Assembly: GCA_047619315.1 (NCBI GenBank)
Contig: JBLHKB010000002.1
Location: 1-53,253, forward strand
DNA: 53,253 nt
Source: Polyangiales bacterium
Lineage (GTDB): Bacteria; Myxococcota_A; Polyangia; Polyangiales; Houyiibacteriaceae
Direction: 5' to 3'
Shown here: positions 13,158 through 41,850 of the stretch, piece by piece
Layout: every line of letters begins with the position of its first letter
Numbering within the stretch: the stretch's first letter is position 1
Position numbers and translations under genes: made by a program
The notes under the pieces: model-generated
Seen by the model: the letters and a program-made list of their open reading frames with translations, nothing else
Told to the model about the DNA's origin: nothing
The model's database searches: none

Positions 13158-14236
13158 TGTTCGCGCGTTTGCGATCGACGACGTTTTTGGGGGTGGCCTT
13201 GCTCCTCGTGTCGTGTCTTCGCCCGTCGGAGCACCACGAGCGTCTCGACGAACGTGTGGGGATGGCCGAGGTGGAGGGGCTCCGCATCGACAGCGACGGG
13301 TCCCTAGCGATTCGCTCCGTCACGCCCCAGGAGATCGTACTTTGGGCGGGCACGCCACGGCTTCGCCTGAGCATCGAGGGCATCACCGTGCCTCTGCGCC
13401 TCCGGGTCATGAACACCCTCCCCGATTCGTTGCTCGTCGCTGGCGGGACGCTCGTCGCTCGAGAGAACGGACGGCGCCGCACGGAAGGTCTCTGGACGCT
13501 GGACCCGTCGATGAGCGGCGAGGAGCTCATCATCGAGAGCGCCGACGCCGAACTTCCCATCGCGCACGCGGTGGCAGTCCTCAGCGACATCCAAGAAGCC
13601 GTCGACAATATGGCGGATATCGTGGACCGACTAAACCAAGACGAGATTCGTTATGTGGTCTCGACGGGTGACCTCACCAACAACGGAACTCGCGAAGAGA
13701 TCATTCGTTTTCAGCTGGAGCTTGAGCGGCTCGATGTGCCCTTCTATTCCACGGTGGGCAATCATGAGACGCCCGGCCCGGAAAATTGGCACGAGTACTT
13801 TGGCCCTTTCAGTGGCTTCTTTACCCAGCACGGCGTCGCCGTCTCCCTCGTCGATTCGTCCAACGCCACCATCGACCCAGACCTCCATGCGCGCATGCTC
13901 GAATTCGCCAACACGAACGTGGAGACGCTCCATCTTTTCCTTACACACACGCCTCTCCTCGATGCGTCTGGGTTTCGCTCCGGCGCCTTTCGTTCGCGCA
14001 ACGAAGCGGCCCGTATCATCCAAGAGCTGAGCGCACGCCGTGTCGACGCCATCTTCTTTGGACACGTGCACTCCTACTACGCGTACTCGCTCGGTGACGT
14101 CCCGACCTACATCAGCGGAGGTGGCGGCGCGATCCAAGAGCGTCTCGATGGCATCGAACGTCACTACCTGCGGGTGAACCTGGTTCCGGACGCCGAAAGT
14201 CCCATCGACGGAGTCACGCTCATCCGCGTGGACTAG
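13157..14236 (+). CDS. Metallophosphoesterase (calcineurin-like) lipoprotein
   Basis: Lipobox LLVSC; SDIQ, TGDL, GNHE, THTP and GHVH motifs; ATG overlaps the upstream TGA. Confidence 0.9.
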   Translation: MFARLRSTTFLGVALLLVSCLRPSEHHERLDERVGMAEVEGLRIDSDGSLAIRSVTPQEIVLWAGTPRLRLSIEGITVPLRLRVMNTLPDSLLVAGGTLVARENGRRRTEGLWTLDPSMSGEELIIESADAELPIAHAVAVLSDIQEAVDNMADIVDRLNQDEIRYVVSTGDLTNNGTREEIIRFQLELERLDVPFYSTVGNHETPGPENWHEYFGPFSGFFTQHGVAVSLVDSSNATIDPDLHARMLEFANTNVETLHLFLTHTPLLDASGFRSGAFRSRNEAARIIQELSARRVDAIFFGHVHSYYAYSLGDVPTYISGGGGAIQERLDGIERHYLRVNLVPDAESPIDGVTLIRVD

Positions 14237-14997
14237 GCGCAGCTGCATTAGCGAAGGCACCATCCGCGTCGAGGGTGACGCGGCTCCCATCGGTCCTGTC
14301 GACGTCCCCCACAACGAAGAGCGCAGGGACTCCGCGCTCCTTCAACTCTCATAGCTTCCGGCGGTGTCCGCGCCGCGGGCGTCCTCCCCCTGGGCGCTCC
14401 TACGACGTCGGGCCAGCGCCGAGCGCCAGCGCTCGACGTCTTTGTCGAGCTCCCCTTGGTAACCGTCGTAGACGACGACGCCAACTGGCACCGGGACGCC
14501 GCACGCGAGAACCCTTGCTAGTCGCTCGGCTTTGCCGCCAGCTCGCTCATCGGCAAAGCGAAGAGGTCGCAGGAGAGCGCAGGAGAGCGCAGGAGAGCGC
14601 AGGAGAGCGCAGGAGAGCGCAGGAGAGCGCAGGAGAGCGCAGGAGAGCGCAGGAGAGCGCAGGAGAGCGCAGGAGAGCGCGGGCGCTCGATGAATGAGTC
14701 GGCCACGACAAGCCTCGCAAAGGACGCGAAGAAGGCGCCGACGGCGGCGCTGTGGAGTCCGCCAGAGCCTTGGCCAAAGAGCCCGACGAGGGCGAGAAGG
14801 CGCAACGAGGCCACCGCGCAGACCAGGACCGCCGCCGCCGCCTAGCGCGTTCTCCGCTGCGGGAATCGCTGGTCTGCAGCGCGCCGGAGACGTTGAAGGC
14901 CGAGAGGAAGCGCCAGCAGTCCAAGAAGCAGAATCCGCAGGAGCAGGTCGGCGGCGAGGCCCAGGACGATGGGGCTCGGCAGCCCGAAGACGTTCAT
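14220..14997 (-). pseudogene. Remnant of a membrane-anchored PEP-utilising (PEP synthase/RPH-like) enzyme
   Basis: ATG overlaps the upstream stop (ATGA); three hydrophobic segments with TAG at 14842-14844; out-of-frame 10-bp repeat; GGKAERLARVLACGVPVPVG and RSAQGED...AGSYES (ATP-grasp N-domain), then in another frame KERGVPALFVVG...DGSRVTLDADG (end of the mobile His domain). Confidence 0.7.
14571..14680. repeat. Perfect 10-bp tandem repeat (AGGAGAGCGC)x11
   Basis: Read directly. Confidence 0.97.
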
Positions 14998-40020: not shown

Positions 40021-40068
40021 GGGGCGCAAGATACACCCTTAGGGACCTCGCGGCATTTCCGATTTGGT

Positions 40069-41850
40069 TCAGTCACGCCGGGAAGCTTGAACGACCCACT
40101 GGTTTGAGCGGCCCGGTTCGATGGCCCATTCCAAGTCGACCACAAAGCCTGACTTCTGGATCGTCTCTCGCGCCTGCTGGCTGCTGTCGTTGCGGTAATG
40201 CTCGAGTTCCGCGCTGGAGGATTCCGCGCGTGACGTGTGGGCTTGGGTTCGCGCGAGACCGAAGGCGACGTTGTCCACGACGATAAGCCGGCCGCCTGGC
40301 TTGAGCGTTTCGAACGCGCAGGCGAGGGCTTTGGCCGGGTCACGCAGATGATTCCAGCTGCGCAGGAAGAGCACGACGTCGGCGGGCTGAGGCGCCGCGT
40401 GTGCAAGGGCTTCGGCTTCGCCGATGGCAAAGCGCGCCCACGGCCGCGTGCTGCTCAGAGAGCGAAGACGTTCGCCATCCGGGTCGACGCCTAGGTACGA
40501 AAGCGTCCCTGCTTTGGCCGCGGTGGCGAACTCATCCACGTAGGGGCTCTCCCCGCAGCCGACGTCGATCACCTGACCGCGGGCGGATCGAAGGAGCACG
40601 CGAAGGCGCTCATCGTCCTGGACAAAGACCGGCTCCATCGACGCCTCGAACATCCCCGTGCACGTGTTCTCGTGCTCGCAGCCCGCGCAGTCCTCGGCGC
40701 GCTTCAGCTGCACCAGGTCCTTGGCGAAATCGTCCGGCGCGTCCTTGCGGGAGACGTCGTAATAGATCTGACCCTCTTGGTGTTTCGTGTGTTCGATCTC
40801 GGCGTCGGAGAAGTCGCGAGACGATGCGCGAAACCACGCCAGGCGCCCTTGGTGGCGCACGAAGAGATCCCGCGCGGTGTCCCACGGCGCGATGCCGAGG
40901 GGGCCGTCTTTCAACAGGCAACCTTCGGCGTCTTCGTAGCGACGCTCGAAGACATAGTTGAACGAGTTGGAGCGCTGACCGCTCTTAACCGGCGAAATCT
41001 CTTCGGCGCCAAACTGGTCGAAGTAGCCTTTGTAGAGACCCGGGCACGCGCCGCGATGTACGCAGTCCTCGCAGGCCGGCTGAACTTTGTTGCGGTCGTC
41101 GACGGGGAATAGGTCGGGTTCACCGATCTCGCTCATCGTTCGAAAGCGATGTGTTTTGAGATCATCGAAGCGGTCTTCAAGACCTGGAACAAGACAGAAC
41201 GGGATCGCGCCGTGCTGCACGCGGCGACCAAGTTCGTCGCCATAACGAATCGCATCGGCGATATAACCGGCGACGTCTTTCACGCGCGGCATCAAGCGAG
41301 CGAAGAGTTTGTCGCCGCCGCCTTTCGGCTCGACCATCGAGAACTTGAGCTGAGCATCCGGATAAGGCGCCAGCGAATCGATGACGCCGCGCAGATGCTT
41401 CATGTTGTGCTTCGTCACTACGCAGTTGACGTGCAGGTCGACGCCACGGCCGCTCAGATTGGCCAAACACCCATACGTCTCCTCGAAGGCTTTGCTGCGC
41501 ACCATGAGGTCATGAACTTTTGCCGTACCTCCGTGGAGGGAGAGATACACATAACGCAGGCGGTGCTGAAGCAGGGTCTCGACGAGCTCTGGGTAGGCCA
41601 GCATCCGACCGTTCGTGACGAGCCCAAAATCCATGTCGAGACTCGCGCTGAGCTCTGCCCACGCGACGAGCTCGGGGCGAATGGTCGGCTCGCCGCCGCT
41701 CAGAACAATCATCGAATGACCTAGCTCTTTGGCTCGAAGGATCTTTCCTCGCACCTCATCCGCCTCGCCGTCGATGTGGCGAACATCGAGGGTATGACAG
41801 AACGCGCAGTGGTCATTGCACCCGTACCCCACCTTGATCAGCGCCTTCAC
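40069..41850 (-). CDS. HxsC-type radical SAM fused to a class I SAM-dependent methyltransferase
   Basis: CNDHCAFC, SGGEPT, VTNGR; IPFC...CEDCVHRGACPG; second CAGCEHENTCTG; VIDVGCG, LGVDP, SWNH, LKPGGRLIVVD. Confidence 0.9.
   Translation of the reverse strand: MKALIKVGYGCNDHCAFCHTLDVRHIDGEADEVRGKILRAKELGHSMIVLSGGEPTIRPELVAWAELSASLDMDFGLVTNGRMLAYPELVETLLQHRLRYVYLSLHGGTAKVHDLMVRSKAFEETYGCLANLSGRGVDLHVNCVVTKHNMKHLRGVIDSLAPYPDAQLKFSMVEPKGGGDKLFARLMPRVKDVAGYIADAIRYGDELGRRVQHGAIPFCLVPGLEDRFDDLKTHRFRTMSEIGEPDLFPVDDRNKVQPACEDCVHRGACPGLYKGYFDQFGAEEISPVKSGQRSNSFNYVFERRYEDAEGCLLKDGPLGIAPWDTARDLFVRHQGRLAWFRASSRDFSDAEIEHTKHQEGQIYYDVSRKDAPDDFAKDLVQLKRAEDCAGCEHENTCTGMFEASMEPVFVQDDERLRVLLRSARGQVIDVGCGESPYVDEFATAAKAGTLSYLGVDPDGERLRSLSSTRPWARFAIGEAEALAHAAPQPADVVLFLRSWNHLRDPAKALACAFETLKPGGRLIVVDNVAFGLARTQAHTSRAESSSAELEHYRNDSSQQARETIQKSGFVVDLEWAIEPGRSNQWVVQASRRD

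Follow-up and report, generated by a model that had tools for sequence, protein, structure and literature searches.

The His-Xaa-Ser peptide maturation families TIGR03976-03979 reportedly go back to Haft and Basu in 2011, and the canonical system has only recently been given a role, in anti-phage defence. In Escherichia coli, HxsABCD is described as an anti-phage defence system in which the HXS effector needs HxS repeats as well as maturation dependent on radical S-adenosylmethionine (rSAM) enzymes, HxsC binds HxsD, and a change of +8 Da was mapped to the sequence SHRSS (Li et al., Nat Commun 2026, PMC13128918). Supplementary files aside, the same article places 99.7% of HXS systems in Pseudomonadota and describes more than 99.8% of them as four-gene systems, in a survey that took HxsA as query, and makes no mention of Myxococcota, HxsA4 or HxsC4 (PMC13128918). 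The triceptide maturases HaaB, HtkB and YhhB, acting on the motifs HAA, HTK and HNR, are described as joining His-C2 to the beta carbon of residue X3 (PMC11499958). The subject of the present work is a larger His-Xaa-Ser locus found in a Polyangiales bacterium (GTDB Houyiibacteriaceae; assembly GCA_047619315.1), within positions 1-53,253 of the forward strand of contig JBLHKB010000002.1; this whole stretch of 53,253 nucleotides, whose genes were mapped by six-frame scans and family searches (Pfam, NCBIfam), is referred to here as the window.

Judged from sequence, the locus is probably a "type-4" His-Xaa-Ser maturation system of Myxococcota, in which the additional rSAM enzymes act on the precursor HxsA4. 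The rSAM system itself is real, conserved, unusually large and partly named by NCBIfam, and its chemistry and role are what we infer. To our knowledge, few peptide pathways bring together so many rSAM domains for a single precursor. Among the NCBIfam models are HxsA2, HxsA3, HxsA4, "rare" HxsC4 and HxsD-like, so its curators have seen the variant; full-text literature searches found no paper on HxsA4/HxsC4. Proteins of the window pass the cut-offs of HxsA4 (NF038313), "rare" HxsC4 (NF038332) and HxsD-like (NF038315), but these type-4 models cover only three genes of the cluster. The genes of the conserved core are the following:

29643..29927, minus strand: hxsA4, precursor of 94 residues, with an acidic leader of ~51 residues (MAEADDWDELPSF...), the core HCS-(HGS)13-W and a stop
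28579..29649, minus strand: hxsC4, rSAM enzyme with motif CNNNCIFC and a PF04055 match; NF038332 571.2 bits (cut-off 500)
37698..39275, minus strand: hxsB, rSAM/SPASM maturase with motif CNTTCVYC; TIGR03978 547.4 bits (cut-off 370), profile positions 2-466 of 466
39272..39583, minus strand: hxsD-like, small protein; NF038315 60.5 bits (cut-off 41); 4-nucleotide overlap with each neighbour
39580..40029, minus strand: hxsD, with an acidic C-terminal tail (GAMGPPSLDELEDFDFS.EPFEDPLGIAMSWEEKY); TIGR03976 47.8 bits, about 2 bits short of the cut-off of 50
40069..41850, minus strand: rSAM-methyltransferase, HxsC-like rSAM core with CNDHCAFC (PF04055 75.6 bits) and a class I methyltransferase domain (PF13489 45 bits, residues 415-571)

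A sequence-only reading of the window, made before these searches, had already proposed one precursor, an hxsB, two hxsD paralogues and a methyltransferase domain, and all of these are recovered by the scores listed above, the second hxsD with the small shortfall given there. The same reading counted the gene at 28579 among the extra enzymes; it is instead the curated counterpart of HxsC, namely HxsC4.

The precursor covers positions 1-93 of the 93-position HxsA4 model NF038313 with 97.7 bits (cut-off 55). The HxsA repeat-protein model TIGR03979 is not among the rows listed for it at E <= 10, and in Pfam it has no domain above gathering score, the sole row being a sub-gathering match to Collagen. 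By eye, its N-terminus shows an acidic leader and no signal peptide, and no peptidoglycan-binding domain was found in Pfam. An 18-nucleotide tandem repeat lies in the gene at 29653-29770. The overlapping open reading frame (ORF) 29606-29962 of the minus strand was rejected as the precursor, being in the wrong frame and without family matches. As read from the sequence, the likely GTG start of hxsC4 at 29649 overlaps the TGG-TAG end of the precursor gene, and the two genes appear to be translationally coupled. One such repeat ORF only was found in the assembly, with no second precursor-like one.

How constant this precursor is was followed in the neighbourhoods of the 80 HxsC4 loci that ranked best in the species collection; no flank exceeded 10 kb, and 41 loci span the full 20 kb, 39 less. 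Regular-expression scans of the translated loci found 65 poly-HGS ORFs in 63 of them, in most loci directly 5' of the HxsC4 match; in L073, L083, L106 and L116 the ORF lies several kb downstream of HxsC4 on the opposite strand. Every ORF (65/65) ends in Trp, and all 781 inner triplets read HGS. The first triplet is HCS in 48 ORFs, HGS in 8, HAS in 8 and HSS in one, and a leader motif [DE]x0-2[LIV]Px[FYW] occurs in 48 of the 65. The ORFs hold between 4 and 21 repeats (median 13), although contig ends clip some of them. Such a substrate, with 4-21 identical HGS units, a constant terminal Trp and a defined enzyme set, is a cleaner one, and its chemistry should be easier to solve. The number of triplets also varies among close relatives, with 14 in the window and five in the same-genus copy (L121:15581-15814). 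One contig joint of run X5 skips 54 nucleotides inside the repeat (window 29652-29707; side 29, depth 5), which is weak evidence.

The gene hxsC4 encodes the sole NF038332 match above cut-off in the genome. Against the HxsC model TIGR03977 it is the best of the window with 97.3 bits, short of the cut-off of 267.9; the genuine HxsC of G039, a genome of the same order, reaches 378.3 bits. The HxsC4 model gives 13 matches at E <= 1e-5 in the 7.02-Mb assembly, six of which, in five genes, fall in a stretch of ~23 kb on the window contig; an even spread of the 13 predicts ~0.04 there, and the clustering of HxsC4-type matches in the window thus exceeds chance. The window HxsD, for its part, aligns with HxsD proteins that do pass the TIGR03976 cut-off (L122, 60.3 bits; L125, 56.7 bits). 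Its acidic tail is conserved and nearly invariant in six type-4 sequences, is missing from the canonical HxsD of G039, and may be a docking element. Separately, the tail (window 39580-39700) loosely resembles DELPSF, a motif with which the precursor leader opens. A predicted model of HxsD (predicted local distance difference test, pLDDT, 80.5) found no match in the PDB by Foldseek at E <= 0.001, so that a PqqD-like recognition element is not shown by it, and a predicted HxsC4-HxsD complex had a median score of 0.20 against a mark of 0.32, which was counted neither for nor against an interaction.

Compared with the canonical system, the locus shares the HxsB family, an HxsD-type small protein, an HxsC-related rSAM enzyme and a substrate with His-Xaa-Ser repeats. 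In contrast to it, the substrate is a peptide of 94 residues made of leader and repeat, with 13 identical HGS triplets and a terminal Trp; HxsC4 takes the place of HxsC (97 against 268 bits on the HxsC model); a second, HxsD-like gene is present; and four rSAM genes with five cores are added to a gene order D-D'-B-A-C. The HXS effector has a peptidoglycan-binding domain and is exported to the periplasm, whereas HxsA4 is without a Pfam domain above gathering score and its N-terminus is acidic by eye. Both types occur in this order, since G039 carries a canonical four-gene set (L122:7816-11443) with a repeat protein of 218 residues (sub-cut-off HxsA and HxsA3 rows), HxsD (60.3 bits), HxsB (586.4 bits) and HxsC (378.3 bits).

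Upstream in window coordinates lies a second module, with these genes:

18465..20255, minus strand: rSAM enzyme of 596 residues with CNDRCIFC (PF04055 62.4 bits); HxsC-like core, middle domain of ~270 residues and HxsC-type C-terminal Cys motif
20350..22629, plus strand: two-core fusion of 759 residues, with a class-B-type half (CPFRCIHC) and an HxsC-like half (CNNHCTFC); PF04055 in two stretches, 120 bits
22626..23555, plus strand: MoaA-like rSAM enzyme with CNLACDYC (PF04055 86.6 bits)

The first two genes form a divergent pair separated by 94 bp, and the ATG of the third overlaps the TGA of the fusion gene, as read from the sequence, these two being translationally coupled as well. Those rSAM genes of the window that lack a curated family match HxsC4 or HxsC best, far under the cut-offs. 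This holds for the 596-residue enzyme, whose start was set by homologues and whose tail matches positions 273-335 of the HxsC4 profile; its middle domain has no family assigned, and atlas structure rows point to TIM-barrel folds (template modelling, TM, scores 0.40-0.51) as a lead only. For the 22626 gene the best NCBIfam rows are MoaA, at 87.8 bits against a cut-off of 325, all rows being below cut-offs. In the same-genus genome G001 (contig C205), the 596-residue and MoaA-like rSAM genes carry one in-frame stop each (TGA and TAA), which could be sequencing errors or early decay.

In the fusion, both Cys triads are invariant in 31 of 31 aligned homologues. Among the 120 homologues listed, which are 742-834 residues long, coverage of the 809-residue ORF is 87-96% and mostly 93-94%; databases name them only "radical SAM protein" or "MoaA/NifB/PqqE/SkfB family". 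A B12-type rSAM enzyme had also been proposed, and for the first half of the fusion this class-B (cobalamin-domain-type) architecture holds at the level of the predicted fold: the model (pLDDT 80.3) comprises a predicted Rossmann-like domain and an rSAM barrel, as in class B enzymes, and Foldseek returned AprD4 (8e-18), MgmA (1.5e-16) and then CysS, TokK, TsrM and OxsB, with E-values from 8e-18 to 5e-11. Unlike those enzymes, this half is fused to a second, HxsC-like rSAM domain, and it has no match to the B12-binding family PF02310 (residues 1-260 of the long ORF give no row at E <= 0.5, and among the 120 homologues listed one has a precomputed match). AprD4, the best match by structure, acts as a diol dehydratase and not as a methylase.

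The number of rSAM enzymes had been put at six further intact genes, with eight CxxxCxxC motifs in intact genes overall. Five of those genes (18465, 20350, 22626, 28579 and 40069) keep PF04055 matches and motifs; the sixth, at 27986, is truncated:

28097..28582, plus strand: truncated HxsC-like protein of ~160 residues, without CxxxCxxC and GGEP, with the C-terminal CxxCx5C kept; convergent with hxsC4

The ORF in which it was called (27890-28582) has no PF04055 match and covers only positions 127-288 of the 292-position HxsC profile. Its motif CPPQCLSC (28004) sits in an N-terminal stretch that is unconserved even within the genus, and full-length homologues carry CDNxCVFC and GGEP ~90 residues upstream of the beginning of the truncated protein. 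The count is therefore seven sound cores in six intact genes, HxsB included. The truncated form recurs across several genera, and the ratio of nonsynonymous to synonymous substitutions (dN/dS) against the same-genus copy is 0.14, as under purifying selection, which argues for a retained accessory protein without the cluster motif and not for a pseudogene.

The extra rSAM genes had been expected to co-occur with hxsA, hxsB and hxsD in other genomes, and this is what was found, in the 80 loci as well as in 41 related genomes and an evenly drawn sample of 401 Myxococcota genomes; the proposal of a system much larger than the four-gene Hxs is supported to that extent. On the complete chromosome of G014 the whole set lies within ~21 kb without an insert: 596-residue rSAM, fusion, HD, MoaA-like, MopE-motif, truncated, HxsC4, HxsA4, HxsB, HxsD-like, HxsD and rSAM-methyltransferase genes. 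G005, G036, G037, L083, L106 and L116 hold the same families in other arrangements, and orthologues of the rSAM-methyltransferase (52-60% identity) adjoin hxsD in G014, G005, G036, G037 and G025. With at least 35% identity across at least half of the query required, the 80 loci contain HxsB in 43, HxsD in 39, rSAM-methyltransferase in 33, HxsD-like and truncated or full HxsC-like proteins in 20 each, MoaA-like in 19, the 596-residue rSAM and the fusion in 12 each, MopE in nine and HD in four.

Among the 41 relatives, 19 have HxsB and 13 HxsC4 (by cut-off), with the fusion in 15, the rSAM-methyltransferase and the 596-residue rSAM in 17 each and the MoaA-like enzyme in 11; the 22 HxsB-negative ones have none of HxsC4, fusion, rSAM-methyltransferase, 596-residue rSAM or MoaA-like rSAM. 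In the larger sample HxsB was scored by its curated cut-off and HxsC4, the fusion and the rSAM-methyltransferase by E <= 1e-100; few candidates per genome were scored, and carrier overlap with HxsB was taken from a hand comparison of the lists. HxsB was present in 141 of the 401 genomes and the fusion in 71, with 29 of 29 genomes of one family positive for HxsB; HxsC4 was present in 33 (23 above cut-off) and the rSAM-methyltransferase in 16. All carriers were HxsB-positive (fusion 71/71, rSAM-methyltransferase 16/16, HxsC4 33/33) against a background of 141/401. HxsB-based systems are thus common outside Pseudomonadota, at odds with the share of 99.7% for that phylum given in the article (PMC13128918). 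Cultured carriers exist, among them Nannocystis exedens (DSM 71), N. pusilla, N. punicea and Enhygromyxa salina (DSM 15201), so genetics is feasible.

A different explanation of these associations is that two separate pathways are merely inherited together: HxsA4 would be matured by HxsB, HxsC4 and the HxsD proteins alone, and the second module, perhaps with the rSAM-methyltransferase, would make or modify something else, such as a small-molecule cofactor for the Hxs enzymes. We consider it unlikely. It would fit the several genomes in which the modules lie on different contigs, and the fusion being commoner than HxsC4 (71 against 33 of 401 genomes); set against this, HxsB is found in every fusion carrier, and in G015 and G016, where HxsB is on another contig, the second module lies directly beside hxsA4-hxsC4 and so adjoins the precursor gene. 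The best rows of the 22626 gene, though below cut-off, are those of MoaA, a guanosine triphosphate cyclase, and the nearest folds of the class-B half include the small-molecule enzymes AprD4, TokK, CysS and OxsB, yet the second-best match, MgmA, methylates a protein residue, and the assembly offers no second precursor-like repeat ORF. A pteridine-reductase-type short-chain dehydrogenase/reductase (SDR) and an HD hydrolase encoded downstream would also suit a cofactor pathway, except that the SDR is genus-specific.

The probable assignment of all the extra enzymes to HxsA4 has its own difficulties, which are gathered here. The rSAM families are deeply diverged: in a tree of rSAM domains each forms its own clade, HxsC4 is not sister to canonical HxsC, and the deep order is not settled, for which reason a recent expansion of HxsC is not claimed. 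The modules are not always linked, five Nannocystis loci having nothing else within 10 kb of hxsA4-hxsC4, and G015, G016, G033 and G037 having the modules on different contigs. The excess of fusion carriers over HxsC4 carriers means that the fusion also serves, or travels with, other HxsB systems. Related genomes were counted as they stand and are not independent of one another, so the co-occurrence counts overstate the support. In the window itself one two-core rSAM gene has been deleted and the core operon is broken by 7.6 kb of unrelated envelope genes. No RNA run was found to contain the locus. As for the chemistry, the scores of HxsB on the cyclophane-synthase models all fall far short of the cut-offs (YhhB 60.4 against 445, GrrM 52.1 against 310, FxsB 46.7 against 370 and AmcB 48.4 against 425 bits), and the change mapped in E. 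coli is described as +8 Da and not the -2 Da of a simple crosslink (PMC13128918).

Under the reading of one precursor and many enzymes, HxsA4, with its leader and HCS-(HGS)13-W core, would be the shared substrate of the rSAM set. The conserved core of rSAM-methyltransferase, HxsD, HxsD-like, HxsB, HxsA4 and HxsC4, split by the 7.6-kb insert in this genus, would be complemented by the second module, that is, the divergent 596-residue rSAM and two-core genes with the MoaA-like gene coupled to the latter, and the truncated HxsC-like protein without a cluster motif that adjoins hxsC4 may serve as an accessory. HxsB, of the SPASM type, and the HxsC-type enzymes would act repeatedly on identical HGS triplets and link His and Ser residues through C-C or C-X bonds, the HxsD-type small proteins being putative adaptors by analogy with the HxsC-HxsD complex of E. 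coli, and the class-B-type half and the fused class I methyltransferase would add methyl groups. The analogy with HaaB, HtkB and YhhB suggests His-to-Ser cyclophanes: like triceptide systems, the locus has a SPASM-type rSAM maturase and repeated three-residue motifs beginning with His, the core (HCS and 13 x HGS) presenting the repeated aromatic/His-X-X motif expected of a triceptide; unlike them, its HxsB falls outside the HaaB/HtkB/YhhB-type families, and triceptide clusters normally need one rSAM enzyme. The cluster has no conserved exporter or leader peptidase, and none was found in the window, so the product may remain intracellular as a small modified protein; metal handling, defence or service as a cofactor are candidate roles.

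A bolder version of this scheme, which we hold as a tentative and rather doubtful possibility, is an assembly line in which six to nine rSAM domains turn each HGS triplet into a crosslinked, C-methylated unit. Its product would belong to a new class, either of ribosomal peptides or of cofactors derived from a peptide, and might bind metal through arrays of modified imidazoles; the chemistry of such a line would also explain the +8 Da (+C, -4H) of the HXS step, the only mass change known for an Hxs system.

With the same machinery the role could also be anti-phage or anti-predator defence, the matured HxsA4 being a basic, His-rich effector that blocks incoming DNA; this would not exclude the mechanism above, and we regard it as improbable. 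The precedent is that canonical HxsA-D is described as a defence system whose effector needs HxS repeats and rSAM maturation (PMC13128918), and HxsB, HxsD and a relative of HxsC are common to both systems. HxsA4 differs from that effector in its 94 residues, its acidic leader and the lack of a peptidoglycan-binding domain and, by eye, of a signal peptide, and PADLOC gave only generic viperin-type rSAM rows. The cluster also stands in an ordinary chromosomal setting, flanked by a transporter, kinases, a di-haem oxidoreductase and an AMP-binding enzyme. The spread through the phylum (HxsB in 141 and the fusion in 71 of 401 genomes), with 29 of 29 in one family, looks more like vertical inheritance than like a defence island.

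The remaining genes in and around the cluster are the following:

14994..17801, minus strand: TPR-PhyH protein, with PhyH (Fe/2-oxoglutarate dioxygenase) at residues 681-902, 25.7 bits (cut-off 22)
23552-24040, plus strand: GNAT protein, PF00583 45.3 bits; in 1/80 loci, same-genus only
24084-24857, plus strand: SDR; in 1/80 loci, same-genus only
24897-25439, plus strand: HD-domain gene; in 4/80 loci
downstream of the rSAM operon, with 25406-25872 within it: TonB_C gene; in 1/80 loci, same-genus only
26311..27927, plus strand: Cys-rich secreted protein with a MopE-type metal-binding motif, PF11617 37.6 bits
30035..37661, minus strand: genus-specific insert of 7.6 kb between hxsB and hxsA4, with five envelope or secreted-protein genes
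42050-42751, minus strand: neighbouring protein of 233 residues without a significant Pfam family, for which the atlas lists only Myxococcota hypothetical proteins

An Fe/2-oxoglutarate dioxygenase and a GNAT had been counted as parts of the pathway. Both domains are there, PhyH as a weak match; their association is not conserved, the PhyH gene occurring in none of the 80 loci and the GNAT in one, and the comparison of loci lends no support to a hydroxylated or acetylated peptide. The TPR-PhyH gene has its own divergent promoter side, and the remnant of an oppositely oriented gene parts it from the rSAM genes. The insert encodes a secreted protein of 1130 residues with HEIGHMLGLNH, a metzincin-type motif, along with two lipoproteins that are tandem paralogues (510 and 498 residues), a further lipoprotein of 217 residues and a small membrane protein; none of them reaches the cut-off of a Pfam or NCBIfam family, and four of the genes occur in none of the 80 HxsC4 loci, with homologues only in the same-genus locus L120. 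By these distributions, PhyH, GNAT, SDR and the insert appear to be genus-specific or unlinked and not core parts. An accessory part is possible in the case of the MopE-motif protein, whose place is kept by synteny in several genera: nine of the 80 loci have an orthologue between the 22626-type and truncated genes, and the genome holds many paralogues. The protein of 233 residues was not included in the system, as it is without a family and its orientation relative to the rSAM-methyltransferase gene varies.

Beside the 596-residue rSAM gene the window keeps two remnants:

~18183..18468, minus strand: first ~90 codons of a two-core rSAM gene, with ~2.95 kb missing by blastn comparison with the same-genus locus L121
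18024..18149, plus strand: first ~40 codons of a tryptophan-halogenase-like gene of the flavin adenine dinucleotide (FAD) type, aligning to L121 positions 1-102

The decayed rSAM copy that the sequence-only reading had noticed is thus a deletion remnant. In L121 its counterpart is an intact two-core rSAM gene of 587 residues with two PF04055 stretches; the 2.95-kb deletion in the window took most of this gene together with the halogenase-like gene, and the junction is bridged by a contig from another run (X5). One could accordingly suppose that the system is decaying in this genome and no longer works as a whole, a view that would also draw on the truncated HxsC-like gene without cluster motif, the 7.6-kb insert that parts hxsB from hxsA4 and the in-frame stops in two rSAM genes of the same-genus genome. 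It is very improbable, since all core ORFs are intact with their catalytic motifs kept, ten genes compared with their same-genus copies have dN/dS values of 0.02-0.14, as under purifying selection, several genera share the truncated form, and the deleted two-core gene has a 48%-identical paralogue on contig C63 of this assembly (G000 C63:3604-7342).

Beside that paralogue lies one of the 14994-17801 gene, with 43% identity in the TPR part, which makes a second "two-core rSAM plus TPR" pair in this genome. The intact halogenase-like gene (L121:2-1564; PF04820 111 bits) is convergent with the two-core rSAM gene and was not found at other loci; a connection with the constant terminal Trp of the precursor may or may not exist. 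Within the two-core remnant, 13 GGC/GCC triplets (18238-18277; poly-Ala in one frame) mark a place where contigs from other runs seem to break off. Between the converging metallophosphoesterase and TPR-PhyH genes, positions 14568-14680 are filled by 11.3 copies of the 10-bp unit CGCAGGAGAG, a perfect tandem repeat with 100% matches. Beside the cluster, the Ser/Thr-kinase-like gene at 43776-45776 has well over 100 paralogous matches across the assembly. At 25406-25872, a GGC-rich stretch inside the TonB_C gene, the summed contig depth rises ~15-fold in three of four runs, which most likely reflects repeats shared with other organisms.

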